A stretch of 64,000 nucleotides of DNA from an uncultured Rickettsiales bacterium. Its GTDB lineage: Bacteria; Pseudomonadota; Alphaproteobacteria; Rickettsiales; JALZUV01. Each line of letters begins with the position of its first letter. Within the stretch, counting starts at the first letter, position 1. A program made the position numbers and the translations under genes. Of this stretch, positions 25,189 through 40,480 are shown piece after piece. Below the pieces are notes generated by a model. The model was not told the origin of the DNA, did no database searches, and saw only the letters and a program-made list of their open reading frames with translations. The DNA lies in assembly GCA_964654855.1 (NCBI GenBank), contig CAZZJS010000002.1, positions 15,285-79,284 of the forward strand, read 5' to 3'.

Positions 25189-27093
25189 ATGCTAATAGAT
25201 TATCAATCTGATGAAAAGAAGCCAATACCGCGCTTATTCATCCTCTTCATTGGGCTATTCAGCTTACTTTTCATAGCCATTTCAGCGATCGTTATCATCC
25301 CAAAACTAGATATATTTTCTTCTAACTTATCTGTAAATGGCTATGAACTAAATCTAGACAAAAACAGCAACGTAGAAGCACCTTCTAAAGTTTCCCGAGC
25401 ACCAGCAGAGAAAACCCCAGAATGCTTATACACCCTCATATCTCAGTTAGCGGCTGGCGCTTTTATTCTAACGGTATTCTTAGGATGGTTGGGGTATCGC
25501 ATAATCGTTACCCCCTATAAAGCACTCGAAAAAGCACATAATAAATTACTAATTTTGCAAGAAGCAGTGGAGCATATGAGCGATATTTTCATTGTTACCA
25601 AGGCCGATGATTTGGATAAAAACTTAGAGATTGTTTATGTTAACCCAGCCGCAACACAAATAAGTGGCTATTCAGCAGAAGAATTGATTGGCCAAACTCC
25701 TCGCATTTTTCAAGGCGATCAAACCGATCGTGTTGCTCTAGACCGAATACGTGCAGCATTAGAAAAAGGCAATAGTATTTCAGAAGAAATTATCAATCAT
25801 ACGAAAAAAGGAGAACCTTACTGGGTTCAAATCAATATTACCCCTATCCGTAACCGCCACGGCAAAATTATTTATTATGCAGCATTAGAAAGTGATATTT
25901 CCGAGAGAAAGCGACAGGAAGAAGCATTGCAAGAAGCAAAATCTGTTGCAGAAACCGCAAACCAAACAAAAACAGAATTTTTAGCAAGTATGAGCCACGA
26001 ACTTCGCACTCCAATGAACGGCGTACTCACTTCGGTTGAATTACTTTTAGATGAACCACTCGACGAAGAGCAGCATGGTATTGTTGACGTAATTCATCGT
26101 TCTGGAAAACACTTACTAACTATCCTCAATAACATTTTAGATATATCGAAAGTCGAATCTGGTGAAATAGAGTTAGAATCGCATCCCGTTCGTCTACAAC
26201 ACTTAGCAAATGAACTCGAACAGCTTTTCAGACCTGTCGCTGAAAATAAATCTATCGCTCTATCAGTTGAAGTTGCCTCTGAACTGCCTGCTTTTGTCAT
26301 GGGAGACTCAACACGTATCGCACAAGTTTTAGGCAACCTAACAGGTAATTCACTAAAATTCACACCCGAAGGAGGAGAGGTATCTATCACCATTTCCGCT
26401 GATCAAGCCTCCCCAAACCTTATTCACTTCACAGTTGAGGATACAGGCATCGGCATTGCTGAAGATAAGTTAGAAACAATATTTGATAAATTCTCACAAG
26501 CGGATGCCGCAACGACTCGTCAATATGGAGGAACAGGACTTGGTTTAGCAATTTCGAAAGAACTCGTCGAATTAATGAAGGGTCACATTCATGCCAAAAG
26601 CACTCTAGGCAAAGGCTCTTGTTTCACTTTCTCGTTACCGATGAATCCAATTCGGAAAAGTCAACTTTCTGTGAACACCAAAATACCATCAAACCCACTC
26701 CCTATTCCAGAAGACGTTCATATTCTTTTGGTAGAAGATTACCCCATTAATACACAGCTCATTCAGAAACAATTAAACAAAATTGGAATCAAAAAAATTC
26801 ACTGCGCTGAGGATGGCCTTGAAGCATTAAAAATGCTCTCTAAGAACCCAGACATTTACGATCTCATTTTATTAGATTGCCAAATGCCAAATCTAAATGG
26901 TTATGAAACAGCAGTACAAATAAGAGAGAGTGAGAAACATAGTGGCTCTCACATCCCTATAATCGCTATGACTGCCAATGCAATGGTTGGAGATAAAGAA
27001 AAATGCTTTTATGCTGGAATGGACGACTATTTAAGCAAACCCTTAAAACAAAACGACCTACACAAAAAACTAGGATATTGGTTAAGCTGTTAA
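25189..27093 (+). CDS. Membrane hybrid sensor histidine kinase (2 TM-PAS-HisKA-HATPase-REC)
   Basis: PAS (YVNPAATQISGYSAEELIG..KKGEPYW), ASMSHELRTPMNG, NSLKFT, DTGIGI, QYGGTGLGL, DLILLDCQMP. Confidence 0.93.
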   Translation: MLIDYQSDEKKPIPRLFILFIGLFSLLFIAISAIVIIPKLDIFSSNLSVNGYELNLDKNSNVEAPSKVSRAPAEKTPECLYTLISQLAAGAFILTVFLGWLGYRIIVTPYKALEKAHNKLLILQEAVEHMSDIFIVTKADDLDKNLEIVYVNPAATQISGYSAEELIGQTPRIFQGDQTDRVALDRIRAALEKGNSISEEIINHTKKGEPYWVQINITPIRNRHGKIIYYAALESDISERKRQEEALQEAKSVAETANQTKTEFLASMSHELRTPMNGVLTSVELLLDEPLDEEQHGIVDVIHRSGKHLLTILNNILDISKVESGEIELESHPVRLQHLANELEQLFRPVAENKSIALSVEVASELPAFVMGDSTRIAQVLGNLTGNSLKFTPEGGEVSITISADQASPNLIHFTVEDTGIGIAEDKLETIFDKFSQADAATTRQYGGTGLGLAISKELVELMKGHIHAKSTLGKGSCFTFSLPMNPIRKSQLSVNTKIPSNPLPIPEDVHILLVEDYPINTQLIQKQLNKIGIKKIHCAEDGLEALKMLSKNPDIYDLILLDCQMPNLNGYETAVQIRESEKHSGSHIPIIAMTANAMVGDKEKCFYAGMDDYLSKPLKQNDLHKKLGYWLSC

Positions 27094-27219
27094 TAGGCAG
27101 TGCTAGAACTATTGTAATATAACTAGTATTTAAAATGCCTTTTTTTACTCCATGTTATGAAAACATATAGAGTCCAGAATTTCATAATATCGATTATGGA
27201 AAATTGGAGTTAACGCTTA

Positions 27220-27882
27220 TTAAGCAGCAGACTTCTTCAAGAAAACACGATAAGCGGTTGCCTGTATCTCCAATTTTTGAGAGGCTACAGTTTCAGCAAA
27301 CCCCTTAAAAACACGAACTTTAGGCTGCTTAGAAAGAACATTCATGACCCGGTAGATTTGGAATTGCTTAGGATGCTTCTGGCAGGCATCCCACTCATTT
27401 GCTGAGAGATAGAAACCAAGTAGGCTACTGCCCTGCGTTGACTTCACTTCAATAAATATCTTCTCTCCCTCTTCTGTGAAAGAAGTAATATCCCACCCAA
27501 CAAACTCATTTTCAAAGCAATGCGCCCGGATCTGATCCGCTAAATCCTCTCGCCCTGCATTAATCAAGCGCTCTCTTTCAGATTTGAGGACATATTGCTC
27601 ACCATGAGTGCCAATTGCAGTCTTTGAGAGATCACCCTCTTGTTTCGGTTTCTTCTTGCTCAGCTCCTGCTTGATGTCATGCTCAGTGACATGCTCATAA
27701 ACTATGCTGATTTTTTGTTCTGGCTTTTGATGAACAATAATATCTTCAATGCTTGGAAAAAGAGGGTCCAGTACCATAGACTGATAAAATTCGACAATTT
27801 CGATTAAGTCCTTTTTGAAGCGCTCTTCATTTAGCGAAACCTTGAGATTACGCTTCCTCGCTCCCGACATCATCGAATCCAT
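27220..27882 (-). pseudogene. DUF3883 (NOV C-terminal, PD-(D/E)XK-like) domain protein, probably 5' truncated
   Basis: GEQYVLKSERERL..GWDITSF..IFIEVKST..FYLSANEW; its 5' end runs into a recombinase relic on the other strand. Confidence 0.7.
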
Positions 27883-27982
27883 TTTGAATGGAACTAATCC
27901 AACGCATTGGACCTATAAAAAACTCATCCGTGTTAAAGCTACAAATTGGGATGATCAGCGCCAACAACTTGGCAGCGCCTAA
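27842..27982 (+). pseudogene. 3' relic of a large serine recombinase (alphaproteobacterial island type)
   Basis: Translates LRLRFLAPDIIESILNGTNPTHWTYKKLIRVKATNWDDQRQQLGSA*, matching the remembered LRLAFLAPDIVEAIL.G.QP...W.EQR..LG terminus; not in the ORF track. Confidence 0.7.
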
Positions 27983-28071
27983 CTCTCCAACTCCTGCTCG
28001 TAAATCGCCAACAGAGAATATTGGCCTAATTGGCTCTGATTTTCTCCATTTTATCATTCTCTGGCAGGAGT

Positions 28072-28180
28072 TGTGGGGATAGTAGGCGCCGCAAGCGGCG
28101 CACACGCGGCGGCTCTGGTGAGCGACTCTTTGAATGTGTTGGAAACTAAGGAAACAGTGGCGAGACAGCCCGCCTAACAT
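28072..28180 (+). repeat. About 110-bp imperfect direct repeat, copy 1, with att-like core TGGCG-AGACAG (28158-28168)
   Basis: Aligns with 33790-33900; core resembles the tRNA-Ser 3' end TGGCGGAGAGACAG at 40112. Confidence 0.85.
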
Positions 28181-28231
28181 ACATCCATAATCGTTAATAG
28201 AAGCTAAATACCACATACCAATATCAAACAA

Positions 28232-28251
28232 TACTCATATATCTACTCATA
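28232..28251 (+). promoter_or_regulatory. Candidate integrase arm-type sites
   Basis: TACTCATA-n4-TACTCATA, same 12-bp period and similar distance from the core as the repeat at 33952. Confidence 0.45.
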
Positions 28252-28363
28252 AAAGCACTGGCTCTTAGTGCATTTTAATGGAATATATTGGATTCCAATC
28301 AGATAAAACCCTGTGCCCTCTTAACGCTTAGGGTTAGCGTGGTGCGGTGGGGTAAATTTAGGC

Positions 28364-28425
28364 AAAAGAAAACCCGCTCATCTGCACTCCTTATTAGGAG
28401 TGACCGGATAAACGGGGTTCTTTTT
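28364..28425 (-). terminator. Long stem-loop / intrinsic terminator downstream of the cargo gene
   Basis: Minus strand AAAAGAACCCCGTTTATC..CACTCC-TAATAA-GGAGTG..GATGAGCGGGTTTTCTTTT with G-U pairs and a U tract. Confidence 0.7.
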
Positions 28426-28436
28426 GGCAGTTTCTC

Positions 28437-28961
28437 TTACTTCACGTATAGTTTCCACTTGTAAGGAGTTTCCCTTTTTGCTTTGAGGTCTCTGACGTCT
28501 TTGTCAGTTACTTCTACAACTTGGAATATTAGCTCCCATTGCGTACAATACACTTCGTCGTTTAACGAAAGGCTGTTATCGGTGAAAAATTCTTCGTCAG
28601 GGAAATAAGCAATTAATACTCCTGCCATCAGCATTCCTTGAGCTGGGTATTTGCTTAAGTAGCTAATATGGAGAGCATTTGCAATTTCCTTTGCTTTCTT
28701 GTCTTGCTTCTCCTTTTCGAGGGCTTTTTCCTTTGCAATTTCCTTTGCTTTCTTGTCTTGCTTCTCCTTTTCGAGAGCTTTTTCCTTTGCAATTTCCTTT
28801 GCCTTGAGTGCTCGTTTTTGATTTCTCTTCAACAGAGTAATGATTAGCATAACTAGCATATATATTGCTAGAACCGCGAAACTAGCTTTAGGACGGTCGT
28901 TTCCAAGCAACATTAGGCTTAAGAGTGCAGTAAAAATTCCAAAAAAATTTACTTTTTTCAT
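28437..28961 (-). CDS. Hypothetical membrane protein with 18-aa tandem repeat
   Basis: Two N-terminal hydrophobic segments; (KAKEIAKEKALEKEKQDK)x2.3. Confidence 0.7.
   Translation of the reverse strand: MKKVNFFGIFTALLSLMLLGNDRPKASFAVLAIYMLVMLIITLLKRNQKRALKAKEIAKEKALEKEKQDKKAKEIAKEKALEKEKQDKKAKEIANALHISYLSKYPAQGMLMAGVLIAYFPDEEFFTDNSLSLNDEVYCTQWELIFQVVEVTDKDVRDLKAKRETPYKWKLYVK
28680..28802. repeat. 54-bp tandem repeat, about 2.3 copies
   Basis: TGCAATTTCCTTTGC recurs at 28680, 28734 and 28788. Confidence 0.95.
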
Positions 28962-29059
28962 AACTGGTTGTTTAAATAATTAGAAATAAATGTTCTTTTT
29001 ACATCTTCCCCGGCAGGTGAATAACGATAAACAGTCATGTATGAAATACAGGAAAACTC

Positions 29060-29183
29060 TAAAAATAGAGAAAAGAACCCTTGAATTATAACTGAAGCGA
29101 CTTCAAATAGCATGTTACAGTTCTGTTAAGATTTCTTCCAACAAACAGTAATCACGAAGTCATCTTCTAGCAGCAGGTCATCA
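29060..29183 (-). repeat. About 125-bp block A, inverted copy of 32616-32740
   Basis: Both copies read TGATGACC..GATGACTT..TTACTGTTTGTTGGA..TTAACAGAACTGTAACATG.TATTTGA..CTTCAGTTATAAT..GGTTCTTTTC. Confidence 0.9.
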
Positions 29184-29320
29184 GGGTGCTCTACATTGAA
29201 TCTAACTCTTGCCTCCTCCACACTTTCACCCACCTCACAGAACACAACCCTCACCCGCTCATGTGATGGGGTGATAGATTGCTCCAATTTATCCATACGG
29301 CGCTCTAATGGCTTGCTCAT
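29126..29320 (-). CDS. Small hypothetical protein of a phage-satellite-like module
   Basis: ATGA-coupled to the upstream ORF; its 3' end is conserved in the inverted copy at 32616. Confidence 0.6.
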   Translation of the reverse strand: MSKPLERRMDKLEQSITPSHERVRVVFCEVGESVEEARVRFNVEHPDDLLLEDDFVITVCWKKS

Positions 29321-29517
29321 GCCTGACTTCTTTCTCGTTCCTCTAATATAGCTGCTACTTCATCTTGCGTGTAAGAGCGCGTGATTATGTGAGGCACTTC
29401 TTCGACGGGAATACCTGAAGTCTCTGCCCAAAACTTCCTCATTTGCTCTCCCAACTCGATTTCTCTTCCGCGCGCAGATTCTAGCTGCTCTAACCGCTTT
29501 GATAGTTGCTTGCTCAT
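29317..29517 (-). CDS. Small hypothetical protein of a phage-satellite-like module
   Basis: ATGA overlaps on both sides; MSKQLSKRLEQLE coiled-coil start. Confidence 0.55.
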   Translation of the reverse strand: MSKQLSKRLEQLESARGREIELGEQMRKFWAETSGIPVEEVPHIITRSYTQDEVAAILEERERSQA

Positions 29518-30020
29518 AACTGCTTTCCTTCCAATGCTTCTATGCGTTTTTCTAGCTCACAGGCTTCTAATGAGCGCCTATGTAGCTCTAATAATGCTGC
29601 AACTGATTGTGCTTCATTTGGAGTTAGCTCTCCTTGTGACACCGCATCAATCAATGCAGCAATAGCGGTGGGCAAATCCTCCGCTGACTCAATGGCAGGA
29701 AGCCGGAATGATACGGGTGCATCTTTACGCGGTGGAAGGTCACCTGATTTACCTGCTCCTGGATAACAAAAACCCATTGGAAGAATGGCAATCTTTTGAA
29801 GATCATAAAAAACATTCTTATCAATGCCCATCCACTCGCGCAGACGATCTCCGCTAGGGTCATCAAATGGAATACCCGTTTTATGCACCTTACTGCCCGG
29901 TGCTTGGCCTGCGATTAGAATTTTGGCATTAGGGTGAATTTGCACGACGGGGCGTGCCCCCAAAGGCAAATGAGGTTCGCAGATGGTGCAGCTTTTTACT
30001 TCGTCTATGAGGTTCTGCAC
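29514..30020 (-). pseudogene. In-frame chimera: N-terminal half of a uracil-DNA glycosylase family protein + C-terminal half of a DUF5681-type protein
   Basis: CTIC..LPLGARPV..GQAPG..GIPFDDPSGDRLREWMG..PMGFCYPG..GDLPPR joined to KDAPVSFRLPAI..AVSQGELTPNEA..LEKRIEALE. Confidence 0.8.
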
Positions 30021-30044
30021 AAGGTTTAGGTTTGTTACCAGCTT

Positions 30045-31412
30045 CTACGGGCATCCTTTTCGCGTAATTTCACGCATAGTGACAAATTCTTCTGAGATCG
30101 TAGGATGTACACCAACGGTTCGATCAAATTCATGCTTTGTAGCTCCTGCCCGTAAAGCCACGCCTAGCATTTGAATAATTTCCCCTGCATCAGGCCCTAC
30201 CATATGTGCGCCAACCACTTTGTCGCTGCTTACATCTACAATGAGCTTCATTAGTATTTTTTCATTCATATCATCGGAGAGCCGGTATTTTGTGGGACCG
30301 AAGCTCGTCATATAAATATCAATATCGGAATATTGAGCACATGCTTCTTCTTCGGTTAGCCCAACTGTTCCAATTTGAGGCTGACAAAATACTGCCGTCG
30401 GCACGATAAAGTCGGAAATATTACGTTTTTTATTGCCGAAATGCGTATCAGCAAAAGCGCGGCCTTCATTAATGGCTACGGGGGTTAGATTGTGGTGCTT
30501 ATTGGTAGCGTCACCTACGGCATAGATATTTTCAACTGATGTTTGCTGCCACTCATCTACATCAATTTGGCCTCGTTCATCTAATTTAACCTTTGTGTTT
30601 TCTATCCCTAATTCGTCAAACATCGGAACTCGTCCTGTTGCAAACATGACTTGATCTACAGGCCAGTCCTTATTGTGATCGCACTTAAGAGTTAAACTGC
30701 TATCAGCATTTTTACTTACCGCAACGGGATTGGTGGTGGAGACTATCGTAATGCCTTTTTTCTCAAGCTCTGCTCTAACATGTTCTCGCACATCACGATC
30801 AAACCCATTAAGAACACGGTTTCTACGCACCATGAGTGTCGTTTCAACACCGAGACTGTGAAAGATACTAGCAAATTCAATGGCAATATAACCACCGCCA
30901 ACCACAATGATTTTTTCTGGTAGTGCATCTAGATGGAAAGCTTCATCGGAGGTAATCGCATGTTCTTTACCTTCAATATCAGGAACAAAAGGCTTACCAC
31001 CAACGGCAATAATAAATTTATCTGCTGTTATGTGCGTATCGCCGATGGCAACGGTGTGATTATCAATAAATCGTGCAAAGCCAGTATGGATATCCACCCC
31101 CGCTTTACCCAGCATTGTGTCATAGATACCGTTAAGGCGCTTGATCTCTTTAAAGGTATTCTCTTTCAAGGCTTCCCAATTAAACTTGGGCTTTTCAAAC
31201 TCCCAACCAAAGCTACGTGAAGTTGTAAATTCATCCGCACACATGGAAGCATACATATACCATTTTTTAGGCATACAGCCACGATTGACGCAGGTGCCAC
31301 CAAATTTATCACCTTCTGCAATACCTACTTTTGCACCAAGTGCCGCTGATGAGCGAGCAGCGGCTACACCACCTGAGCCGCCTCCAATAACGAATAGATC
31401 ATAATGGGTCAT
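30045..31412 (-). CDS. gor: Glutathione-disulfide reductase
   Basis: GGGSGG, GGTCVNRGCMPKK, VGGGYIAIEFA, PTAVF, VGVHPTISEEFVTM. Confidence 0.93.
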   Translation of the reverse strand: MTHYDLFVIGGGSGGVAAARSSAALGAKVGIAEGDKFGGTCVNRGCMPKKWYMYASMCADEFTTSRSFGWEFEKPKFNWEALKENTFKEIKRLNGIYDTMLGKAGVDIHTGFARFIDNHTVAIGDTHITADKFIIAVGGKPFVPDIEGKEHAITSDEAFHLDALPEKIIVVGGGYIAIEFASIFHSLGVETTLMVRRNRVLNGFDRDVREHVRAELEKKGITIVSTTNPVAVSKNADSSLTLKCDHNKDWPVDQVMFATGRVPMFDELGIENTKVKLDERGQIDVDEWQQTSVENIYAVGDATNKHHNLTPVAINEGRAFADTHFGNKKRNISDFIVPTAVFCQPQIGTVGLTEEEACAQYSDIDIYMTSFGPTKYRLSDDMNEKILMKLIVDVSSDKVVGAHMVGPDAGEIIQMLGVALRAGATKHEFDRTVGVHPTISEEFVTMREITRKGCP

Positions 31413-31849
31413 GTTTTTTCCTGTTTCTGAGCTTGTTTGATAAGTTCTTTTGTTTTCTCGCAGTTTAAAATCAGTTTTGAAGCGATGATAGATTCTTTTA
31501 CCAGATGATAAGCTCCCAAAATAACACTGATAATACCAATACCTGTGATTATTTTCGCCATATTTTGCTACAATAAAGCATCCCCCTCAGACACAAATCC
31601 AGTCACGCTTCCGATAAGTGCAGAGATTGCCAGTAATCCGATAGAAATGTAGAAAGCAACAAGCGCCTTGTGAAAGTGATAAGTACGCTTAACTAGTTTT
31701 TCGATATCCATCGCATGGATACGGTTCTGCGTTCTAACAATTTCGCGAATCAGAGAACTTACGTGAAACAAACGGGTAGCCGTTGATAAAACCAACATTG
31801 CTACACCGGGAATAAAGGTGAAAGGTATAATCCAACTACCAAATTCCAT
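31409..31849 (-). pseudogene. DUF2721-like membrane protein interrupted by one in-frame TAG (31568-31570)
   Basis: Frame continues after the TAG as QNMAKIITGIGIISVILGAYHLVKES... to a TGA that overlaps the gor ATG. Confidence 0.7.
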
Positions 31850-31888
31850 CTTATTTCATCCTTTTAATATTCTAACTTTAGCTAAAAG

Positions 31889-32326
31889 TTACGCTATAAC
31901 TGTTTCAACGCTGGCGCCACTTTTTAGAAGTTTTTGGATAGGGCATTTCTCTGCCATTTCTTTTAACGCCTCGCGCTCTTCATCGCTGGCATTACCTTCA
32001 ATAATAATTTCACGTGTAATGACAAGTTCATCATCTTCACGCTTCTGGCTAACGGCGACGTGCAAATTGTTTATTTCAAGACCTTTGACTTCAATGGCGA
32101 GACGCAATACCTGGATAGTACTTCTAGCAAGACTGACAAGTAGCAATTCAATTGGAGATAGCATTGTCGGTGCATCTTCAATTTCATCGTGCCCAACAGT
32201 ATAAAGAGATACGCGGTTTGTTGAAACCGTGATGTTATCTACTTCATTTAAGTCAGCACTCGCCAAAACGTTCCCTGAGCTCAACTCTTTTGGATCAATT
32301 GTAATGGTGTGGTGATGGTCGCTCAT
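31889..32326 (-). CDS. OsmC-family protein (first conserved Cys replaced by Ser)
   Basis: SPIELLLVSLARST, ITREIIIEG, AEKCPIQKLL. Confidence 0.8.
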   Translation of the reverse strand: MSDHHHTITIDPKELSSGNVLASADLNEVDNITVSTNRVSLYTVGHDEIEDAPTMLSPIELLLVSLARSTIQVLRLAIEVKGLEINNLHVAVSQKREDDELVITREIIIEGNASDEEREALKEMAEKCPIQKLLKSGASVETVIA

Positions 32327-32408
32327 AGTTCTACTTCCTTTATCATTCATTTAAAGAAAGGAAGCCTAGAGAGTTCCAGAAGCGTGAAGCCTTGCCTGCA
32401 CCTCGAGC

Positions 32409-32435
32409 TATCCATATCCATATCCATATCCATAT
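32409..32435. repeat. (TATCCA)4 simple sequence repeat
   Basis: tatccatatccatatccatatccatat upstream of the OsmC gene. Confidence 0.9.
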
Positions 32436-32615
32436 ATTAGATAGTATAAACTGTAATGGTGAGCAAAAAGTTAATAAATACACCACCAACTCCCCTTCCG
32501 AAAGCGGCAATAGAGAATATCGTCACGATCTGCAGGGAAACTCTCCGAATTCGTATTCTCTTATAGCACTCAAGGCTTTCGGAGAAGAATGCGGTTTAAT
32601 CTGACAACACCAAAG

Positions 32616-32740
32616 TGATGACCCACTGCTTGAGGATGACTTTATACTTACTGTTTGTTGGAGGAAAAACTTAACAGAACTGTAACATGTTATTTGAGGG
32701 GACTTCAGTTATAATCTGAAGGTTCTTTTCACTATCTTTA
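32616..32740 (+). repeat. Block A copy 2 (inverted relative to 29060-29183), with relic ORF end DDPLLEDDFILTVCWRK
   Basis: Direct alignment to the reverse complement of 29060-29183. Confidence 0.9.
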
Positions 32741-32857
32741 ATTTATTAAAGAAAGCTGTTTTCATCGCACTTGCGCTGTCGATTTATTCGTTTATTGCAA
32801 CTGCAATGATGTAAATAAGAACTACTAAAACATTTTTCAATAATCTTCTAAAAAACA

Positions 32858-33388
32858 ATGTTTATGAAAAACTTATTGTTCTTTGCGCTAATTCTTATGC
32901 TAACTTCATGCAGCAATTCTTTGAGAGTGACTCAAGAAACACCTCTCGAGATACTACCTTTAGAAAATGATAAATTTGAACAATCTCCAAAAGAGGTGTT
33001 CAATATTAACTTCATCTTCGTCGATGATAATCATGATGAAAGTGAGGAAGCTCTTTTAGGACACACCTATCAAGCTAAAGTAGAGAAATATGCTGGTTTA
33101 ACCGTCTGGCACGTAGGAGAAGGTCCTGTGTGGGGAAGCACTACATGGGTTCAAGATGACTCTGGTCGCTTGGGAAAAATCCTTGCACCAAATAGTTGGA
33201 GCACTTTTTTGGAAATTGCCAAAATGACATCACTACGGGAGGCGTTAGACTTAGTTTCTAAAATGAGCTTTCTTGATGGACATTTGATGCAAATGGACTT
33301 TTCAGGAAAGTATCTTAAATTAGGAATGGTCGGTGGCAGTCCTCACTTTGATTATTTCAAGGTGACGGAGGTTGCTAAAGGAAATTAG
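32858..33388 (+). CDS. Hypothetical lipoprotein
   Basis: MKNLLFFALILMLTSC lipobox; lies between blocks A and B. Confidence 0.7.
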   Translation: MFMKNLLFFALILMLTSCSNSLRVTQETPLEILPLENDKFEQSPKEVFNINFIFVDDNHDESEEALLGHTYQAKVEKYAGLTVWHVGEGPVWGSTTWVQDDSGRLGKILAPNSWSTFLEIAKMTSLREALDLVSKMSFLDGHLMQMDFSGKYLKLGMVGGSPHFDYFKVTEVAKGN

Positions 33389-33413
33389 CCTAAGCCCTAA
33401 GCTCTGCGCTTAG

Positions 33414-33490
33414 AAAAAGAAACCTTGCAAATTGCTTACGCTTTTGTGGGGTTTTCTTTTGTCTGAATTTAACCCAGCCGCATCACGCTA
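33414..33490 (+). repeat. Block B copy 2: terminator-like hairpin plus conserved tail, inverted relative to 28335-28425
   Basis: AAAAAGAAACC..GGGTTTTCTTTTGTCTGAATTTAACCCAGCCGCATCACGCTA vs AAAAAGAACCC..GGGTTTTCTTTTGCCTAAATTTACCCCACCGCACCACGCTA. Confidence 0.85.
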
Positions 33491-33506
33491 TTCACATAGT
33501 TCTCCT

Positions 33507-33791
33507 TCATTCAGTATTGCCTAATAGCTTAGAACTCTGCTTAAGCGCATAGGCAATAATGTAATCGGTAACATTGTGACTTACCGCATCTTCAATAAAT
33601 TGCTTCTTAATCTTAAATGGCCGACCTCCGAGCAGTAACTCTACCTCTCCGGTTTCTTTGATAGCGTCAAGAGAGCCACCAAATTGTTTGAGTACATTGG
33701 TGCTATCGAATGGTGCACCAATCGTTACTACCGCTTTTACATGCTCAATCTGTGCAGCAACTACTAACGTTGCTGCACCACCAAGACTATG
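33507..33791 (-). pseudogene. Internal fragment of an alpha/beta hydrolase (type usually fused to OsmC)
   Basis: HSLGGAATL..KAVVTIGAP..LLLGGRPFKIKKQFIED; truncated at the G-H-S-L-G-G elbow by the repeat. Confidence 0.75.
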
Positions 33792-33900
33792 TGGGTATGG
33801 TGAATGCCGCAAGCGGCGCACACGCCGCGGCTCTGGCGGGACGCTCTCTAAAGGTGTTGGAAACTAAGGAAACAGTGGCGGGAGACAGCCCGCCTAACAT
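33790..33900 (+). repeat. About 110-bp imperfect direct repeat, copy 2, with att-like core TGGCGGGAGACAG (33876-33888)
   Basis: Aligns with 28072-28180; GGCGGG-AGACAG-CCCGCC dyad. Confidence 0.85.
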
Positions 33901-34067
33901 TAACTACAAGCAATTGATAAATAATTATATTTATATCATTATCTTAGATAATACCCGCATATATACCCTGATTAACCTTGGTTGATATTGGATTTTAGTA
34001 GACTAGGCAGCTATTATTTAGATTCTGTTCAAGAGGATAGTTCAGGAACAAGAATCAAGGAATTCAA

Positions 34068-34784
34068 ATGCAAAAAACTTTAACGATACTCATCATCGCC
34101 ATACTCTTAACAGCCTGCAACGCGCAAAAAATGAAAATACGGAAAATCGAAAGAAGTTGCAACGAAACACACAGCAACTCAACTATGGAAGCCACACGCT
34201 GCGCCATAGATAAAATCAAATCAACAATGGTTCTAAACGAATCACAGTATGCGTTTTATGATTCGGCAGATGAAGCTCTACAGCTGGTCGAATCAGGAAA
34301 AATATCATTTAGCGAACTTGAAATTAAAACTAAAGAAATAGCTCAAATTAAATTATTAGAATTAAAAAGAGAACAAGACCTAGAACAAGCCAAAATCTCA
34401 GCTTATAAACTACAAGAAACAGTCTCTAAAAATGACGCAAAATGCAAAAGTTATGGCTTAAAAACAGGAACAGAAAGTTACGCCAACTGCCGCATACGAC
34501 TTGAACAAGTGAATAAAAGCAAAGTACCTGTTAAAACAAAGAGCCTCTCTGAGAGATTAAATGATTTTTCGAATGCTTTAGACGAAGATAAGAACTTTCA
34601 AAAAACTCGCCTAGAAGCAAAAGGGATATACCCTAATTCTCAAAATAACACACAGTGTGGCTTCAAATCCATTCCACCTTTTGGTTGCAAAGCTGATAGC
34701 GCTATTTGTATGTGTGGAAATAAAAGCAATCGCCTAGGCGTTAATTCATTAAATCAATGTGAATGGGTTTATACAAATTGTTAA
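34068..34784 (+). CDS. Hypothetical lipoprotein (cargo), Cys-rich C-terminus
   Basis: MQKTLTILIIAILLTAC lipobox; CGFKSIPPFGC..ICMC..CEWV. Confidence 0.7.
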   Translation: MQKTLTILIIAILLTACNAQKMKIRKIERSCNETHSNSTMEATRCAIDKIKSTMVLNESQYAFYDSADEALQLVESGKISFSELEIKTKEIAQIKLLELKREQDLEQAKISAYKLQETVSKNDAKCKSYGLKTGTESYANCRIRLEQVNKSKVPVKTKSLSERLNDFSNALDEDKNFQKTRLEAKGIYPNSQNNTQCGFKSIPPFGCKADSAICMCGNKSNRLGVNSLNQCEWVYTNC

Positions 34785-36297
34785 ATCGACCTATTCAGAA
34801 TGTTTCCACTATTATACAACAACCTCTAGCTCAAAGGAAAATAGATTGCCAACTATAGAAGAAATAAAAATAACAGACGGCTCTGGTTTCTTTACTAAGA
34901 AAAACTTTGAGTGGACAGGAATCAAACCATTTTCAATCATCACTGGAATTAACGGTAGTGGTAAAACAAAACTACTTGAGTACATAGATGGTTCAAGCGT
35001 ACTAACTGAAAATCATCTAATTAGGTACATTGAAACTAACTATAAGCCTCCTCTTGAAAAACATGCAAATGAGCTAGAAAGCAAGTACACTTATAAATTC
35101 AATCAAATAGGAGACATCTACGAGGTTCTCCAAAAAGCAGACACCTCTACTCGCGAAAGCTGGAGCAACAATAAGAGTGCAATCAAGAAAAATGTAATTA
35201 AGCACATTGATTACATGATTCTCGATGGCATTATTAAGCAACGTATCAAGTTCAACCAAGATAGCACCAAACAAAGAGAGGAGCTGGATAGGGTAGATAA
35301 ATATCAAGAGCTTTACGACATGAGCGTTTTACTACCATCTGACCCAACAAAAGACCAACCTTGGGATAGAATTGACAGGATATTGAATAATTTTGAAATC
35401 AAAGTTAGGATTGACCGCAGCAACTTAAACGCGCAATTAAGATTTTTAAGATTAAACACCGAAGAAAAAACAGAGATAGGTGTAGAACTAAACGAACTAT
35501 CATCAGGTGAGAAGGTAGCGTTTTCACTAGCTTTATGGACATGGGGAAATGCCGAAGGACAAAAAACTGAAGTTCTCTTAGTTGATGAGTTTGATGCACA
35601 CCTTAACCCATCTATTTCTCAGAAATTTATTCAAATTATTAAAACGTATTTTGTCGAAATGGGAGTTCAAGTAATAATGACTACCCATAACCCATCAACC
35701 GTCAGCTTTGCGAAGGAATTAGGGGCAAGTATCATTTGGATGGAAGATGGCAGAGTTAGCCCTAAAATGGACTATGAAAATATCATACACACTTTATCCA
35801 ATGGCCTAATAGATATTTATAATCTTCTGGATGAAACTCAATTATTGATAGGAAACAGAGAAAAAACAGTTATCTACACAGAAGGAAAGACTGATAAGAA
35901 ACATATTGAAAGTGCAATCAAAGCACTCAACTTTGAAGAAAAATTTGAGAATTATTTTGTATTTGCCTGCACCTCTGCCTCAACTGTTCCGTTTTTCATT
36001 AGTCTGCCTACAGGACAATCTAAACGAATAGCATTACTTGACAGCGATAAAGCAGGAAAAAGCGCCGAGACTGAAATCAACAAACGCAATACGAAAAAGA
36101 TAGAAGAAGGTAAATATAAAATTACTTTTGTTTCTGATGAGGAGAACAAAGTTATTGAAGACCTATTTAGTTTAGAAATTCGTAACGATGGAGCAGAAAA
36201 CAAAAGTAATTTTGCAGATTATATGGCTCGACCTGAAAACCTAACAAAAGCTAACTTTTTAGGTTTCAAACCTCTATTGGAAAAAATTTTAAGCTAA
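34759..36297 (+). CDS. ABC-type (AAA_15/21) ATPase + TOPRIM-like domain (OLD-family-like nuclease)
   Basis: Walker A GINGSGKT, LSSGEK, Walker B LLVDEFDAHLNP, MTTHNP; IYTEGKTD and LLDSD TOPRIM motifs. Confidence 0.8.
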   Translation: MNGFIQIVKSTYSECFHYYTTTSSSKENRLPTIEEIKITDGSGFFTKKNFEWTGIKPFSIITGINGSGKTKLLEYIDGSSVLTENHLIRYIETNYKPPLEKHANELESKYTYKFNQIGDIYEVLQKADTSTRESWSNNKSAIKKNVIKHIDYMILDGIIKQRIKFNQDSTKQREELDRVDKYQELYDMSVLLPSDPTKDQPWDRIDRILNNFEIKVRIDRSNLNAQLRFLRLNTEEKTEIGVELNELSSGEKVAFSLALWTWGNAEGQKTEVLLVDEFDAHLNPSISQKFIQIIKTYFVEMGVQVIMTTHNPSTVSFAKELGASIIWMEDGRVSPKMDYENIIHTLSNGLIDIYNLLDETQLLIGNREKTVIYTEGKTDKKHIESAIKALNFEEKFENYFVFACTSASTVPFFISLPTGQSKRIALLDSDKAGKSAETEINKRNTKKIEEGKYKITFVSDEENKVIEDLFSLEIRNDGAENKSNFADYMARPENLTKANFLGFKPLLEKILS

Positions 36298-36472
36298 TAC
36301 GCTTCTTGTTTTTTATCACTTCAAGTCTTTGTATTTCTATTTTTGGAGTTAAGCTGTTTTTCTTATTCTTATCTTCAGTCATGATGCTTCTCCCTTTCTT
36401 CGTTAGAGCATCTATTAAAATGGTAGGGGCATGGTATATTATATGTGTCCCTGTAGTCTGACCGTGAAACAT
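36266..36472 (-). CDS. Small hypothetical protein (start uncertain)
   Basis: Short ORF following the HTH gene on the element's core strand. Confidence 0.3.
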   Translation of the reverse strand: MFHGQTTGTHIIYHAPTILIDALTKKGRSIMTEDKNKKNSLTPKIEIQRLEVIKNKKRISLKFFPIEV

Positions 36473-36484
36473 TGTGAAACATCT

Positions 36485-36952
36485 CTACAGTCCCTCTGGC
36501 GATACAATCTGAGCCTCCATAAAGGCCTTCCTGTCCTTCAGGCGGGACTCCACGTCCTTCACGTTATGACGCGTGATTTTTTCAAGCCGTGGTCGTGAAT
36601 GCTTCCAATCATTTGTCGCGGGTTGACCATTATACGGCTCACAGGTGAGGATATATTCGCTGGCCTGACCGCTTTCAAAAGTCCCCACCTTGCGGCGCTT
36701 AACATGCGAGTAATACTCAAGCTCTAATAAAGCTCTATTTGCCGTATCTTTACTACATTTAGCAACCTTACCTGCCTCTCGACAAGAAAGACTTATCTGG
36801 CCATTATTATGGCCGTTATAGCGCCGCCTTAATTCAATCAAAATAAGCTGTGCATTACTGCTCAATTCTAACCATGAAGGATGCTTCAAGAAATAATACG
36901 TCAACTTAACGTATTGCTCGCCGCCGCCCCTAGTTTTCTTTCTTCGTGCCAT
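36485..36952 (-). CDS. Helix-turn-helix protein, possible replication-initiator type
   Basis: WLELSSNAQLILIEL..YNGHNNGQISLSCREAGKVAKCSKDTANRALLELE. Confidence 0.65.
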   Translation of the reverse strand: MARRKKTRGGGEQYVKLTYYFLKHPSWLELSSNAQLILIELRRRYNGHNNGQISLSCREAGKVAKCSKDTANRALLELEYYSHVKRRKVGTFESGQASEYILTCEPYNGQPATNDWKHSRPRLEKITRHNVKDVESRLKDRKAFMEAQIVSPEGL

Positions 36953-37005
36953 ATCTTTTTATCGACGAGGAGAGTAGCAAGCGCCACCCTCCATCGCCTC
37001 TCCAT

Positions 37006-37308
37006 TTACGCTGTTATCAATTCCAAAACTTCTATTTCACACCCCAGTACATACCGTGCATGACTTACGCCATCATGTGGTTCTCGAAGTATCTCAATAG
37101 GGACGCCATAATCATGGCGCAGAATATGGACACAAGTTCTCAGTCCGTATGCAGAACTGAGCATCTCTGGCGCGCTAATACCTTTTGCACCTTTCTCGAC
37201 CAACGCCGCTATTGTTTGCGCGACGCGGCCATTAGCCATACGTATAGTTTTTTCACCATCTTTCGTGATACGGAAGGTGATGTAGCAATTACTTAGCTTT
37301 TCAAACAT
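37006..37308 (-). CDS. Small winged-helix-like protein
   Basis: TIAALVEKGAKGISAPEM..LRTCVHILRH.YGVPIE..HARYVL. Confidence 0.55.
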   Translation of the reverse strand: MFEKLSNCYITFRITKDGEKTIRMANGRVAQTIAALVEKGAKGISAPEMLSSAYGLRTCVHILRHDYGVPIEILREPHDGVSHARYVLGCEIEVLELITA

Positions 37309-37588
37309 CGCGCCCTCCCTCTAAACCACTAGCATTAGCAATAGCTGACGCCATTGAAAGGGACACATTGTAACGCTTGGCTATATGCCCATAACGCTGC
37401 TTCATGGTTTTGTGAATTCGCTGCTTTTCGCTATATTCGAAAAGCGGAAGTGAGTTTTGGATATAGCTATCCTGTTTCCCATATGATAAGATCATTGAGT
37501 AATCTCCATTTTTATAATTTCGTTTAAGAGTGCTGATTTGAGGGTGGATTACGCTGGTCGTACCCAGCGCCACCCTGCTAATCACCAA
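37301..37588 (-). CDS. Hypothetical protein of the element core
   Basis: Co-oriented with AlpA; ends with GGAGGG SD overlapping the next start. Confidence 0.5.
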   Translation of the reverse strand: MVISRVALGTTSVIHPQISTLKRNYKNGDYSMILSYGKQDSYIQNSLPLFEYSEKQRIHKTMKQRYGHIAKRYNVSLSMASAIANASGLEGGRDV

Positions 37589-37609
37589 TAGTCATCTTCG
37601 GCTAGAGCT

Positions 37610-37828
37610 TCATAAAACTTCATATCGCGTCTCCTCGATACGAGAAGAAATCCAATCATCAATTTCTGATTCTATCCAACCAACAGCTCGTTTACCTATG
37701 CTAATCGGCTTTGGAAATTCGCCGCGCTTTATATCTGCATAAATACTTGAGCGTGAACGACCTGTTCGACTTATAACCTTTTTCAAGCGTAAAATTCTAG
37801 TTTCAACCATATCAAACCTTTCTGTCAT
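37610..37828 (-). CDS. AlpA-family excisionase/regulator
   Basis: ILRLKKVISRTGRSRSSIYADIKRGEFPKPISIGKRAVGWIESEIDDWI. Confidence 0.92.
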   Translation of the reverse strand: MTERFDMVETRILRLKKVISRTGRSRSSIYADIKRGEFPKPISIGKRAVGWIESEIDDWISSRIEETRYEVL

Positions 37829-37917
37829 TTATAGGCAGATTATAGCAGGTATAGGAATCTAATATATTGTTTTTTATAAACTTTATTTCCTTCCAGTTGA
37901 AAGGAAATATCGTATCA

Positions 37918-38733
37918 TTAACTCCATGCTTTGTTATCTTGGGAGTTCAAGTAGGTCTGAAGGGTTTTTTCTTTCTGCTTAATTCTTAATGCTGCACACA
38001 AAATTTTTATAAATTCGGCTGAGTTACCATTCAGTTTACAATAGTGGTCACTAATCGGATTAGTAGATACTGAGGTTTTTGGTATTTCACCTGTGAACCA
38101 ATAATAGGCATTTGCCGCCGCCCAAACATATTCTGACGCTCTATCATCCCTTTTATTTCTTTGCTTTGGGGGAGTTTTATACTCACTACTATCCACCATT
38201 TTCTCAATTGAGGTTATAGTACGCTCAAGAATCTCAACATCTATATGCGTCAACTGAAAAGGATTCTCATAAAAACCGAAAATTTCATAATCGTATATGG
38301 TATCAGCACTACTTATCTTTTTCTTCATCTCTGGTGATTTCAAATAGCTAGTTTCCAAGCCTTCATTTTTTCTAATTTCTACTACTGAGTTATGTATCAT
38401 TTTCCGAAGAAGAGAATTAGATTCATCCTTAGCATCATAGATATTATCGAGTGTTGATAAAGCATCTCTCATTTTTTCAGCAGCTTTTAATACTGGCCTT
38501 ATTGCATTCAAAACTTCATCTTTAGATAGTTTCCTAGGGTAGGAATAACTAGCCTCACTAAACGCTGCTGTTAAAATTTCCAGCAACTCGCCAGCCCTAC
38601 TAATATCTTGCTTTCCAGCTATGCAAAGTTTTTGGAGCAACTTTTGATTCAGCGATTCAACTATCATACGCCCTACAAGAAAGTCAGGTTTGGATAGCAA
38701 ATTATCAGGTCGAGTAGGTAAGCATCTAGGCAT
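37918..38733 (-). CDS. Hypothetical protein between integrase and AlpA
   Basis: 271-aa ORF overlapping the integrase stop. Confidence 0.6.
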   Translation of the reverse strand: MPRCLPTRPDNLLSKPDFLVGRMIVESLNQKLLQKLCIAGKQDISRAGELLEILTAAFSEASYSYPRKLSKDEVLNAIRPVLKAAEKMRDALSTLDNIYDAKDESNSLLRKMIHNSVVEIRKNEGLETSYLKSPEMKKKISSADTIYDYEIFGFYENPFQLTHIDVEILERTITSIEKMVDSSEYKTPPKQRNKRDDRASEYVWAAANAYYWFTGEIPKTSVSTNPISDHYCKLNGNSAEFIKILCAALRIKQKEKTLQTYLNSQDNKAWS

Positions 38734-39949
38734 TTAAGACTACACCTTCAATCGAGAAAATCTTTTCATTCGTACCATTACTTAACAAGTCCAACCAATC
38801 AGCATATTCTTGCATCATTTTGATACGCTCTAAGCGATACTTAGCGCGGTTATATGCACCTCGAACCTTATCTCTCTCAGCATGAGCCAATTGGTATTCA
38901 ATAACATCAGGCCTACAGCCTTTTTCATTAAGTATGGTGCTTGCCAATGTACGAAAACCATGCCCCGTCATGCGCCCTTGATAACCCATACGGCGCAAAC
39001 CCATTAAGACAGCACCATTACTGATATGCTTTGATTTGCTTGCAGCACTAAAGAAAATGAAATCTCTATTTCCTGTTTTTTCTTGCATCTCCCTCAACAA
39101 GTCTAGTGCTTGGCGGGACAATGGTACTAAATGAGGGCGGCGCATCTTCATACGTTCTTTCGGGATATTCCATTCTTCTTTTTGCCAATCGATTTCTTCC
39201 CACCGCGCACCAATAAGCTCATTGGTACGAACGAAGGTCAGCATCAACAGTTTTGTGGCATAATAGGTGAAATCACGCCTTCGAGATTCAATCTTCTCAA
39301 TCAACTCTGGCAATTCATCGATTGGAATACAGGGATGGTGTTTCTCTTCTCGCGTTGGCAATACATCACGCAAGTCACTGGCAGGATTATGAAGGCATAG
39401 ACCACGCTGGGCAGCATAGCGAAAAACTTGTCCCATCACTTGCTTCATACGTTTCGCTGTTTCAATCGTACCATGCTCGCCAATCGCTTCCACCACCGCA
39501 ACAACATCAGGTATAGTAATATCTTCAATTGGCAATGCTCCAACCCTAGGAAAGATATGCTGTTCCATACGAGCTAGTGTTTGCTTTGCGTACTTCGCAT
39601 TTAGGTTTGGGCTTTTTACTTCGAGCCATCGCCGCGCGATAACCTCAAAGCTATTCTCTCCCTTTATAGTATTACGGAGTTTCTCTGCTTTCTTTTCGCG
39701 TGCAGGGTTTTTACCTTCATCCAGTAAAGCACGAGCTTCCAACATTTTCTTACGAGCCTCACTCAGCGAAACTTGTGGGTATTTCCCTAAAGCAAGCACC
39801 TGCTCTTTGCCGTTAAACCGATAACGATAGCGCCATAACTTACTGCCAGTCTTAGCAACCTCAAGCAACAAACCATTACCATCAGCCAACTTGTAGGCTT
39901 TGTCTTTAGCTTTAGCACCTCTGATTGCTACGTCAGTAAGTTTGCTCAT
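38726..39949 (-). CDS. P4-like tyrosine integrase with Arm-DNA-binding domain
   Basis: KAYKLADGNGL..GSKLWRYRY; LTFVRTNEL; MTGHGFRTLAST; IEYQLAH; GAYNRA. Confidence 0.95.
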   Translation of the reverse strand: MSKLTDVAIRGAKAKDKAYKLADGNGLLLEVAKTGSKLWRYRYRFNGKEQVLALGKYPQVSLSEARKKMLEARALLDEGKNPAREKKAEKLRNTIKGENSFEVIARRWLEVKSPNLNAKYAKQTLARMEQHIFPRVGALPIEDITIPDVVAVVEAIGEHGTIETAKRMKQVMGQVFRYAAQRGLCLHNPASDLRDVLPTREEKHHPCIPIDELPELIEKIESRRRDFTYYATKLLMLTFVRTNELIGARWEEIDWQKEEWNIPKERMKMRRPHLVPLSRQALDLLREMQEKTGNRDFIFFSAASKSKHISNGAVLMGLRRMGYQGRMTGHGFRTLASTILNEKGCRPDVIEYQLAHAERDKVRGAYNRAKYRLERIKMMQEYADWLDLLSNGTNEKIFSIEGVVLNA

Positions 39950-40111
39950 TTATCCAATCTCCTAAAAAATCTCTAATTATACCCGCAAATATACCCGCTT
40001 TTTATTTAGCTGGTATAGCACTTCGCTGGAACTCAAGGGAACCAAAACCAACCAAACACTTATATAACATAAGGTTTTTTGGACTTTATTGGAAGCTATA
40101 AGGAAGAGAAA

Positions 40112-40201
40112 TGGCGGAGAGACAGGGATTCGAACCCTGGAAGGAGTTGCCCCCTTGCTGGTTTTCAAGACCAGTGCATTCAACCGCTCTGCCATCTCTC
40201 C
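40112..40201 (-). tRNA. tRNA-Ser(TGA) with encoded CCA
   Basis: GGAGAGA acceptor stem, anticodon arm CTGGT-CTTGAAA-ACCAG, long variable arm, GGTTCGAATCC, GCCA end. Confidence 0.97.
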
Positions 40202-40254
40202 GCGCTGGTGACTAGTTAGCAGGGTCTACTTAACCCGACAAGCCTAAAATTGCG

Positions 40255-40470
40255 CTAGCTTTTCTTCAGGAACTCGGTACGTAGCACAATGGTAGACTTT
40301 CCAATACGGCATTCGACTTCGTCTTCATCATTGGTGAGGCGAATTTTGTTTACTTTCGTGCCACGTTTTAGGTTCAAGGAGGAGCCTTTTACTTTTAAAT
40401 CACGAATGAGGGTGACGGCATCGCCATCGTTTAATGTGTTACCGTTACTGTCTTTCACTTCTTCGCTCAT
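40255..40470 (-). CDS. phnA: PhnA/YjdM C-terminal-domain protein
   Basis: VKDSNGNTLNDGDAVTLIRDLKVKG..LKRGTKV..IRL..LRTEFLKK. Confidence 0.85.
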   Translation of the reverse strand: MSEEVKDSNGNTLNDGDAVTLIRDLKVKGSSLNLKRGTKVNKIRLTNDEDEVECRIGKSTIVLRTEFLKKS

Positions 40471-40480
40471 GATAATTCCT

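Follow-up and report, generated by a model that had tools for sequence, protein, structure and literature searches.

A tRNA-Ser gene in a Rickettsiales genome as a probable integration hotspot of serine- and tyrosine-recombinase elements

The 64-kb window analyzed here, a stretch of contig CAZZJS010000002.1 from an uncultured Rickettsiales bacterium to which all coordinates refer unless another contig is named, contains one tRNA gene according to ARAGORN and Rfam, tRNA-Ser(UGA) on the minus strand at 40112-40201 (60 bits against the Rfam tRNA model). The aldo-keto reductase gene to its right is syntenic in this genome and in three relatives of the same genus (G001, G002 and G003), and the DNA to its left, our subject here, carries relics of large serine recombinase (LSR) elements and an intact tyrosine-integrase island for which this tRNA appears to be the integration target. 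On the plus strand the tRNA's 3' end reads TGGCGGAGAGACAG (40112-40125), the last 14 nt constituting the att core. Displaced tRNA ends occur at 33876-33888 (TGGCGGGAGACAG), the far-end att site of the intact island, and at 28158-28168 (TGGCGAGACAG), which aligns with 40112-40125 with a loss of 3 nt; because these matches require a gap of 1-2 nt, an ungapped search that tolerates mismatches only recovers the tRNA copy alone. The original prediction, made from the sequence of the window, had located both internal cores and placed them in a common repeat of ~110 bp, and with small coordinate corrections both are found there, at the right end of the repeat. The two repeat copies (28072-28165 and 33790-33883) are 83% identical when aligned without gaps and 88% identical by BLAST, with 19 further identical nt past the core, and each core is followed by the same 12 nt, CCCGCCTAACAT. 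The link between repeat and core is not due to chance, since two genomes of the genus have the repeat abutting an intact tRNA-Ser gene at exactly that junction.

The repeat is present in all three same-genus genomes. In G002 and G003 it runs directly into the intact tRNA-Ser, with ...GTTGGAAACTAAGGAAACAG joined to TGGCGGAGAGAC(A/G)GGGATTCGAACC. Thus, each internal core of the window is a tRNA 3' end that was displaced along with the former neighbor of the tRNA, and G002 and G003 are the empty sites that the original prediction had suggested looking for, empty of everything now at 28169-40111. A second suggested comparison, whether the repeat follows a serine recombinase gene next to tRNA-Ser, also has a positive answer. 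In G002 a ~175-bp spacer, of which the repeat forms the last part, separates the tRNA from the stop codon of an intact LSR gene (561 aa, Pfam Resolvase and Recombinase), which is preceded by DUF2924, DUF5681 and ParB/N6_N4-methylase genes. Since the repeat follows this intact gene in G002 and LSR relics in the present genome, we call it the LSR arm: it is the right arm of the LSR element itself, and not a flank common to both types of element.

In the window, the serine-recombinase relic predicted to the left of the first core was recovered by tblastn and translation as the last ~49 codons and stop codon of an LSR gene (27824-27982, plus strand), of which 27824-27970 shares 63% identity with the intact G002 protein over residues 510-558 (E 1e-14 to 4e-17). 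It is followed by the first copy of the arm (27983-28157, plus strand, with the repeat core at 28072-28157), which ends in GTTGGAAACTAAGGAAACAG. The second copy (33790-33875, plus strand), whose left side is cut by a deletion scar, matches the arms beside the tRNA in G002 and G003 at 92% identity. At C2:8164-8313 another C-terminal LSR relic, 84% identical, precedes a further arm copy. No intact LSR of this family, with Resolvase and Recombinase domains, was found in this genome, as one was in G002; the window therefore holds relics of LSR elements and no functional member. By eye, a motif CAA(A)CAGAGA(G)AAY lies ~30-45 nt past the LSR stop codon at 27990-28070, at L021 4185-4270 and in the L028 and L031 spacers; it recurs in the arms of LSRs that are only 44-59% identical and may be a conserved cis element of the LSR 3' region. 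The start of a gene for a 220-aa NOV_C/DUF3883-type protein (27220-27882, minus strand; C-terminal matches to PADLOC PDC-S36, PD-T4-1 and TmtA) overlaps the LSR relic, and this candidate defense gene may have been inserted where the LSR gene was lost.

Between the second arm and the tRNA lies an intact tyrosine-integrase island of 6.2 kb (33889-40111, minus strand), delimited by the core copies at its ends and by a unique pair of 18-mers, and missing between arm and tRNA-Ser in G002 and G003. The source run is an algae metagenome. Its independent re-assembly (Logan contigs and unitigs, from the same read data as the original assembly) tiles 27000-41000 at an even depth of 13-14x, breaking only at repeats, and represents the island as a single unitig of 6286 bp at even depth. 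The island encodes an intact P4-type integrase of 407 aa (38726-39949, minus strand; Pfam Arm-DNA-bind_3, Phage_int_M and Phage_integrase) with the catalytic motifs R..HxxR..H..Y visible in the translation (RTNE..HGFR..LAH..AYNRA). The integrase gene starts at 39949, leaving 162 bp to the tRNA end at 40112, and the 13-nt direct copy of the core, with one indel, stands at the far boundary, where the junction GGCGGG-AGACAG-CCCGCC (33876-33888 plus CCCGCC) forms a 6-6-6 inverted repeat. Such a repeat is expected of a tyrosine-recombinase core.

The arm-like direct repeats of 12-bp period that had been noted to the right of the cores are likewise present once their coordinates are slightly corrected. 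Putative arm-type repeats occupy the distal arm of the island (AATACCCGCATATATACCCTG, 33950-33970, plus strand) and its integrase-proximal arm (TATACCCGCAAATATACCCGC, 39978-39998, plus strand), and the 18-mer ATACCCGCANATATACCC occurs in direct orientation at 33951 and 39979 and nowhere else within the 64 kb (0.02 occurrences expected), a pairing that suggests arm-type sites at both ends of the island. The proximal arm has a homologous arrangement (ATCTACCCGCAAATCTACCCGC) beside an integrase relic in G002. The TACTCATA pair at 28232 and 28244 is offset from its core by 61 nt, exactly as is the pair at 33950. Among the closest homologues of the integrase (63-68% identity, in other genomes of the order), 15 of 16 lie ~160 bp from a tRNA-Ser gene of one isoacceptor or another, and more distant homologues adjoin Gln, Pro or Tyr tRNAs.

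Besides the integrase, the island carries an AlpA-family regulator or candidate excisionase (37610-37828, minus strand; Pfam Phage_AlpA, E 2e-21), a winged-helix gene recognized by Pfam, and open reading frames (ORFs) of 271, 155 and 95 aa that have no Pfam match; apart from the integrase and the cargo families, only the winged-helix and AlpA proteins are recognized. The cargo (34068-36297, plus strand) consists of a 238-aa ORF that matches no family and overlaps the gene for a 512-aa ABC/AAA_21 ATPase (Pfam AAA_21, SMC_N and AAA_15), for which PADLOC returns AriA, AbiLi and ATPase-Toprim. As judged from sequence, these translationally coupled genes are a candidate two-gene anti-phage defense pair. 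Elsewhere in the genome, a second P4-type integrase gene (C3:2179-3363, minus strand), 51% identical to that of the island and interrupted by one in-frame TAA, adjoins tRNA-Ser(GCU) at C3:3532-3622 and probably belongs to another decayed island. ARAGORN reports 33 tRNAs and no tmRNA in this genome, which is 99% complete; the tmRNA may be of the two-piece alphaproteobacterial form and have been missed, or it may lie in a gap.

To the left of the second arm, the segment at 28169-33789 appears eroded. It begins with what resembles the left (distal) arm of a tyrosine-type island (28169-28260, plus strand), namely CCCGCCTAACAT followed by AATACTCATATATCTACTCATA at offset 61. The first 12 nt and the 61-nt offset are those of the intact island's arm at 33889, indicating that the two left ends are homologous and that their arm sites have diverged; a third copy follows the arm at C1:11087. 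By Pfam, the segment contains a 174-aa repeat protein, a UDG-like protein, a pyridine-nucleotide disulphide oxidoreductase, an OsmC-like protein, a 176-aa ORF and a hydrolase-like ORF that is truncated at its 5' end (it starts ...HSLGG) and fused to the second arm. Searches of 28169-33789 for relics of Int, AlpA, LSR, DUF2924, DUF5681, ParB-methylase and module R (see below) found none. The end of ORF 29514-30020 had been considered as half of a DUF5681 protein, a mark of LSR elements, but BLASTP against the G002 DUF5681 protein showed no similarity and Pfam returned UDG only. Two inverted repeats, 28348-28375/33449-33476 (89%) and 29060-29183/32616-32740 (~84%), give the region from 28335 to 33490 a mirror-image layout, in which they bracket two unrelated genes (174 aa, minus strand, and 176 aa, plus strand) and the central block of UDG-like, oxidoreductase and OsmC-like genes; this could be an inversion-prone or duplicated slot. 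Within the 174-aa ORF (28437-28961, minus strand) there are three tandem 54-bp units that are 98-100% identical (28678-28805), at which the Logan unitigs break.

The arrangement extends far beyond the span initially described, with copies of the arm outside the window. There are at least seven in the genome, all in one orientation and each ending in TGGCGG, the last 6 nt of the tRNA: on the plus strand at C2:3290-3397, at C2:8314-8493 and at window positions 28072 and 33790, and on the minus strand at C1:11106-11182, C1:15381-15408 (partial) and C1:21318-21386. A match at C1:7784 was discarded as an arm copy, being only ~20 nt long and beside an IS6-like transposase relic; by eye, a short stretch at C1:7600-7700 (minus strand) resembles the N-terminus of an IS6-family transposase (YPLSLRQVEGILHERGIDVCHETIRYW before a stop). 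What follows TGGCGG falls into two classes. At 28158, 33876 and C1:11087 it is (G)AGACAG and CCCGCC(T/G)AACAT, the left end of a tyrosine island. Otherwise it is a sequence of ~90 nt, GGTGCTGYGAGT..AGCAA..TCTCTGAATGA.ATTCCCTGATAACAGC.AAATACAGGGTAATTTCC, which we refer to as module R and which is located at C2:3398, C2:8494, C1:21320, C1:15380 (in part) and C2:3087 (alone). TGGCGG joined to module R occurs four times in this genome and three times in G002, where one junction is behind the relic of a P4-type integrase, with an arm (ATCTACCCGCAAATCTACCCGC ...GGTTTTTTGG...) homologous to 39950-40111, one behind a truncated LSR gene and one behind unrelated sequence. This variety indicates that module R was joined at TGGCGG to whatever was then downstream of the tRNA. 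Module R was also considered as a degenerate tRNA, for which ARAGORN and Rfam give nothing and for which no likeness is seen by eye, and it does not occur in the 118 kb of G001 examined.

Five segments of the present genome have module R on the left and an LSR arm on the right, and two of the five contain LSR relics. The simplest reading of these sequences is that module R and the arm are likely the two ends of LSR elements. The LSR crossover would then fall within TGGCGG, the last 6 nt of the tRNA, and the tyrosine integrase would use about 13-14 nt.

One of the older LSR-type segments ends at the relic in the window, its cargo occupying 1-27823 and comprising an exopolysaccharide (EPS)/biofilm cluster, two-component genes and the NOV_C-like gene at 27220-27882; its left end is the module R at C2:8494, outside the window. 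The EPS block is absent from the tRNA-Ser neighborhood of G001 and collinear with contig C49 of G002, where it likewise starts directly after TGGCGG and module R. The order on C49 is the counterpart of C1:21237 to 16726 of the present genome, an LSR fragment, TGGCGG with module R, the counterpart of C2:8861 to 40313 (the EPS cluster that fills 1-25000 of the window), an integrase relic, and again TGGCGG with module R. This collinearity speaks for an arrangement of C1 (reversed), then C2, then the tRNA, and for a hotspot that measures at least 77 kb. The stack occupies no less than 55 kb of this contig and, within the 1.9-Mb genome, probably 77 kb or more. To the right of the tRNA, G001 and this genome are collinear; the left side is variable, with only a 3.5-kb block in common with C1:17.7-21.2 kb, and core synteny resumes ~58-77 kb on. 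The tRNA flank of G001 consists of a diverged LSR-type arm, a mini-segment of 1.3 kb (L023 7072-8413) whose sole gene encodes a Fic/DOC-MerR fusion of 328 aa, and a displaced arm.

It is therefore quite probable that two unrelated recombinase systems share tRNA-Ser(UGA), at its 3' end, as an integration hotspot, where new arrivals push older elements leftward and these lose their recombinase genes. P4-type islands (Int and AlpA) would recombine within the last ~13-14 nt of the tRNA, and the newest of them, still intact at 33889-40111, would have rebuilt the tRNA with its own copy of the core, leaving the displaced copy at 33876-33888 to mark its far end. An LSR element would have the LSR gene, the ~175-nt arm and TGGCGG at its right end and the ~90-nt module R at its left end. 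Recombination within the last 6 nt leaves almost no target duplication, so that the arm abuts the tRNA. Each later insertion, of either type, would then have an LSR arm or an integrase arm to its left, which accounts for the junctions arm-TGGCGG-module R, arm-TGGCGG(G)AGACAG-CCCGCC... and integrase arm-TGGCGG-module R. Read from left to right, the window gives an LSR relic with its arm, a tyrosine-type left end, an LSR arm, the tyrosine island and the tRNA, an order that bears out the earlier proposal that serine- and tyrosine-type elements inserted alternately at one site. The proposed erosion by deletions is also upheld, as there is no intact LSR, no relic in 28169-33789 and a 5'-truncated hydrolase-like ORF at the second arm. 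From its mismatched ends and this truncated ORF, 28169-33875 would be a fusion of two eroded elements.

Several observations sit less comfortably with this hotspot. The internal cores deviate from the tRNA by indels of 1-3 nt, and no excision product, circle junction or empty-site read was found among the contigs of the source run. G003 has the arm beside the tRNA without an LSR gene; a tyrosine-type left end and an LSR arm delimit 28169-33875, inside which there is no recombinase relic; and both LSR relics set in at nearly one codon (~510), a coincidence that would be unusual if the deletions were independent. A 36.8-kb segment of G002 has module R on the left and a tyrosine-integrase arm on the right, so that the link between module R and LSR is statistical (five of six segments here) rather than absolute. 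Reads did not join C1 to C2, as C1 opens with a 6-kb repeat of which two copies were collapsed. Finally, canonical LSRs are not known to recombine attP with an occupied (attR-like) site. Given that limit, tandem LSR insertion requires a relaxed specificity like that of the Ccr enzymes, which we assume here. In keeping with a collapsed repeat that blocks scaffolding of the hotspot, C1:1-5966 has a Logan unitig depth of 24.9x, compared to 13-14x elsewhere, and two predecessor unitigs.

It is conceivable, if unlikely, that the arm, TGGCGG and module R form a recombination site between exchangeable cassettes that carry no recombinase, are served in trans by a single LSR and were never autonomous, much like a staphylococcal cassette chromosome (SCC) or integron platform. 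In five segments without an LSR gene, module R stands at one end and the arm at the other, with C2:3087-3397 among them measuring only ~310 bp, and the same EPS block has different right-end modules here and in G002; the near-identical start of the two LSR relics could also be taken to mean that a conserved unit begins there. However, this genome has no LSR to serve such sites, an autonomous form with LSR and accessory genes beside the arm exists in G002, and the truncated N-terminal LSR fragment ahead of one G002 junction points to real gene decay. A still less probable view is that the ~110-bp repeat is native sequence downstream of tRNA-Ser, for example a terminator or regulatory sequence, that was duplicated or captured and has nothing to do with serine recombinases. 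Several copies have no LSR relic, and in G003 the repeat beside the tRNA has ordinary genes (DUF3179, DUF2853 and BrkB) and no LSR to its left. Yet the DUF3179 gene, which we had considered as a stable marker of the left flank, is itself accessory, being present only in G003 and in this genome (at the start of contig C8), and LSR coding sequence precedes the repeat, as an intact gene in G002 and as relics here. Distant LSR homologues keep the spacing from stop codon to tRNA at other tRNAs, one of them sharing GCTGGAAACTA...AGTGGCGG with the arm, and seven oriented copies that each end exactly in TGGCGG are not explained by any duplication mechanism.

Two further explanations are highly improbable in our estimation. 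One is that the repeat is a structured non-coding RNA or belongs to another class of sequence (an attC site, a group II intron end or a transposon guide RNA), its likeness to the tRNA being coincidental. The repeat is GC-rich with short hairpins, GGCGGGAGACAGCCCGCC can fold, and GCCTAAC resembles an integron inverse core. Against this, Rfam at gathering thresholds gives the repeat no match, either in the window or in 63 kb of other copies, nor does it at E<=1 on C2:2900-3700, and RNAalifold on nine copies gives a weak fold on both strands (-10.6 and -7.5 kcal/mol) with almost no compensatory changes, so that group II intron ends, IS605/IS110-type guide RNAs and other non-coding RNAs were set aside. 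The attC comparison (GCCTAAC/GTTAGGC with RYYYAAC...GTTRRRY) was abandoned because the match is at the outer end of the conserved block and in the wrong orientation, no IntI was found, and the block is fused to the tRNA in relatives, an exact fusion that also explains the tRNA likeness. The other is that the assembler joined unrelated fragments of the metagenome at the repeats. The genome is indeed metagenome-derived, unitigs break at each repeat, and the start of C1 is a collapsed two-copy region; but all pieces and flanks have an even depth of 13-14x, identity between the repeat copies is just 83-88%, and G002 displays the same architecture independently.

The less ordinary part of the finding is that a clade of LSRs appears, from the position of its genes, to target the extreme 3' end of tRNA genes. 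In three public metagenome-assembled genomes (Rickettsiales/Alphaproteobacteria), homologues with 44-59% identity have their stop codon 170-209 bp from the convergent 3' end of tRNA-Ser(GCU), tRNA-Ser(UGA) or tRNA-Leu(GAG). Homologues are present in 90 of 401 sampled genomes of the order, and 13 of the 30 best loci have, 170-380 bp past the stop codon, the 3' end of a convergent tRNA (Ser-UGA three times, Ser-GCU twice, Ala-GGC three times, Ala-UGC, Ile-GAU twice, Arg-CCU and Gln-UUG); the other loci include several matches that are partial in length or at a contig end. By our own estimate, a random gene would have a convergent tRNA end within ~200 bp in well under 1% of cases. Genomes of one genus of the order, which we take to be Wolbachia, match the N-terminal two thirds of the G002 LSR at 43-45%. 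A broader and still speculative proposal is that an order-wide clade of phage-WO-like LSRs, accompanied by DUF2924, inserts into tRNA genes (Ser, Ala, Ile, Arg, Gln and Leu) within their last ~6 nt, from a fixed arm of ~175-210 nt and with a target duplication so short that tRNA-fragment finders miss it. Such LSRs might build SCC-like arrays in which LSR-less cargo, including the 35-kb biofilm/EPS cluster, is bounded by arm-TGGCGG-module R and may be mobilized in trans.

It is standard for islands to stack in tandem at tRNA and tmRNA genes (Islander, PMC4383910), and the locus is a clear new example of this known process. As stated in 2014, serine integrases were not known to target tRNA genes (PMC4383910); the point added here is an LSR clade that appears to target tRNA ends. 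A large variable region of a small genome, including a whole EPS/biofilm cluster and several candidate defense genes, looks like the product of accumulated integration at one tRNA. Such a clade could also explain why the sites of serine-recombinase prophages in Alphaproteobacteria are often given as not identified: of 15 others surveyed, 11 had no identifiable site (PMC6536676), which fits a minimal target duplication. If the proposal holds, these enzymes would be tRNA-targeting integrases with natural landing sites in many genomes.

The closest parallel may be found in the ssrA islands of Dehalococcoides (McMurdie et al. 2011, PMC3146451), which form tandem arrays downstream of a small-RNA gene, are marked by copies of its 3' end, and have a ~540-aa CcrB-like LSR by the att site in an integration module that includes a ParB-domain protein; many members lack the module and were read as accreted or fixed. 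There, however, the target is tmRNA, the direct repeat is 20 bp long and crossover occurs in the T-loop, whereas only the last 6 nt of tRNA-Ser are common to the LSR junctions here; the second small recombinase DsiA is not present here, and the interleaved tyrosine-integrase islands are a feature of the present locus. SCCmec and other SCC elements at orfX/rlmH (PMC3146451 and general knowledge) similarly rely on an LSR that enters the 3' end of an essential gene and regenerates it, and they build composite arrays with short att repeats and recombinase-less pseudo-elements. The present locus shares this composite organization, with direct repeated att sites at seven or more junctions dividing the DNA into segments, five of them without an LSR gene. 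It differs in that the SCC target is a protein-coding gene in Firmicutes, the Ccr recombinases are a different LSR clade, and relaxed site choice is demonstrated for Ccr and assumed here. In the tycheposons of Prochlorococcus (Hackl et al., bioRxiv 10.1101/2020.12.28.424599), successive integrations at tRNAs, including tRNA-Ser(TGA), push older elements inward and leave partial tRNAs and fragmented integrases behind, mostly by the action of tyrosine recombinases (27 of 937 are LSRs). No primase, helicase or other replication module was recognized in the island described here, the host is of a different phylum, and the LSR arm and module R ends are not described for tycheposons (bioRxiv 10.1101/2020.12.28.424599).

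As for the individual elements, the intact island resembles P4/CP4-57-type islands (Islander, PMC4383910) in its integrase with an arm-binding domain located by the rebuilt tRNA, its AlpA protein and its far-end tRNA fragment, but differs in the shortness of that fragment (13 nt, one indel), in its size of only 6.2 kb and in the candidate defense pair that it carries. The pairing of an LSR with a DUF2924 protein is that of the recombination module of Wolbachia phage WO (PMC11376236), whose prophages are not described there as tRNA-integrated, and no phage structural genes were seen in the parts of the elements present here. Paracoccus phage vB_PamS_Pami6 (PMC6536676) is another alphaproteobacterial serine-recombinase element with a predicted site in a tRNA gene, that of tRNA-Met.

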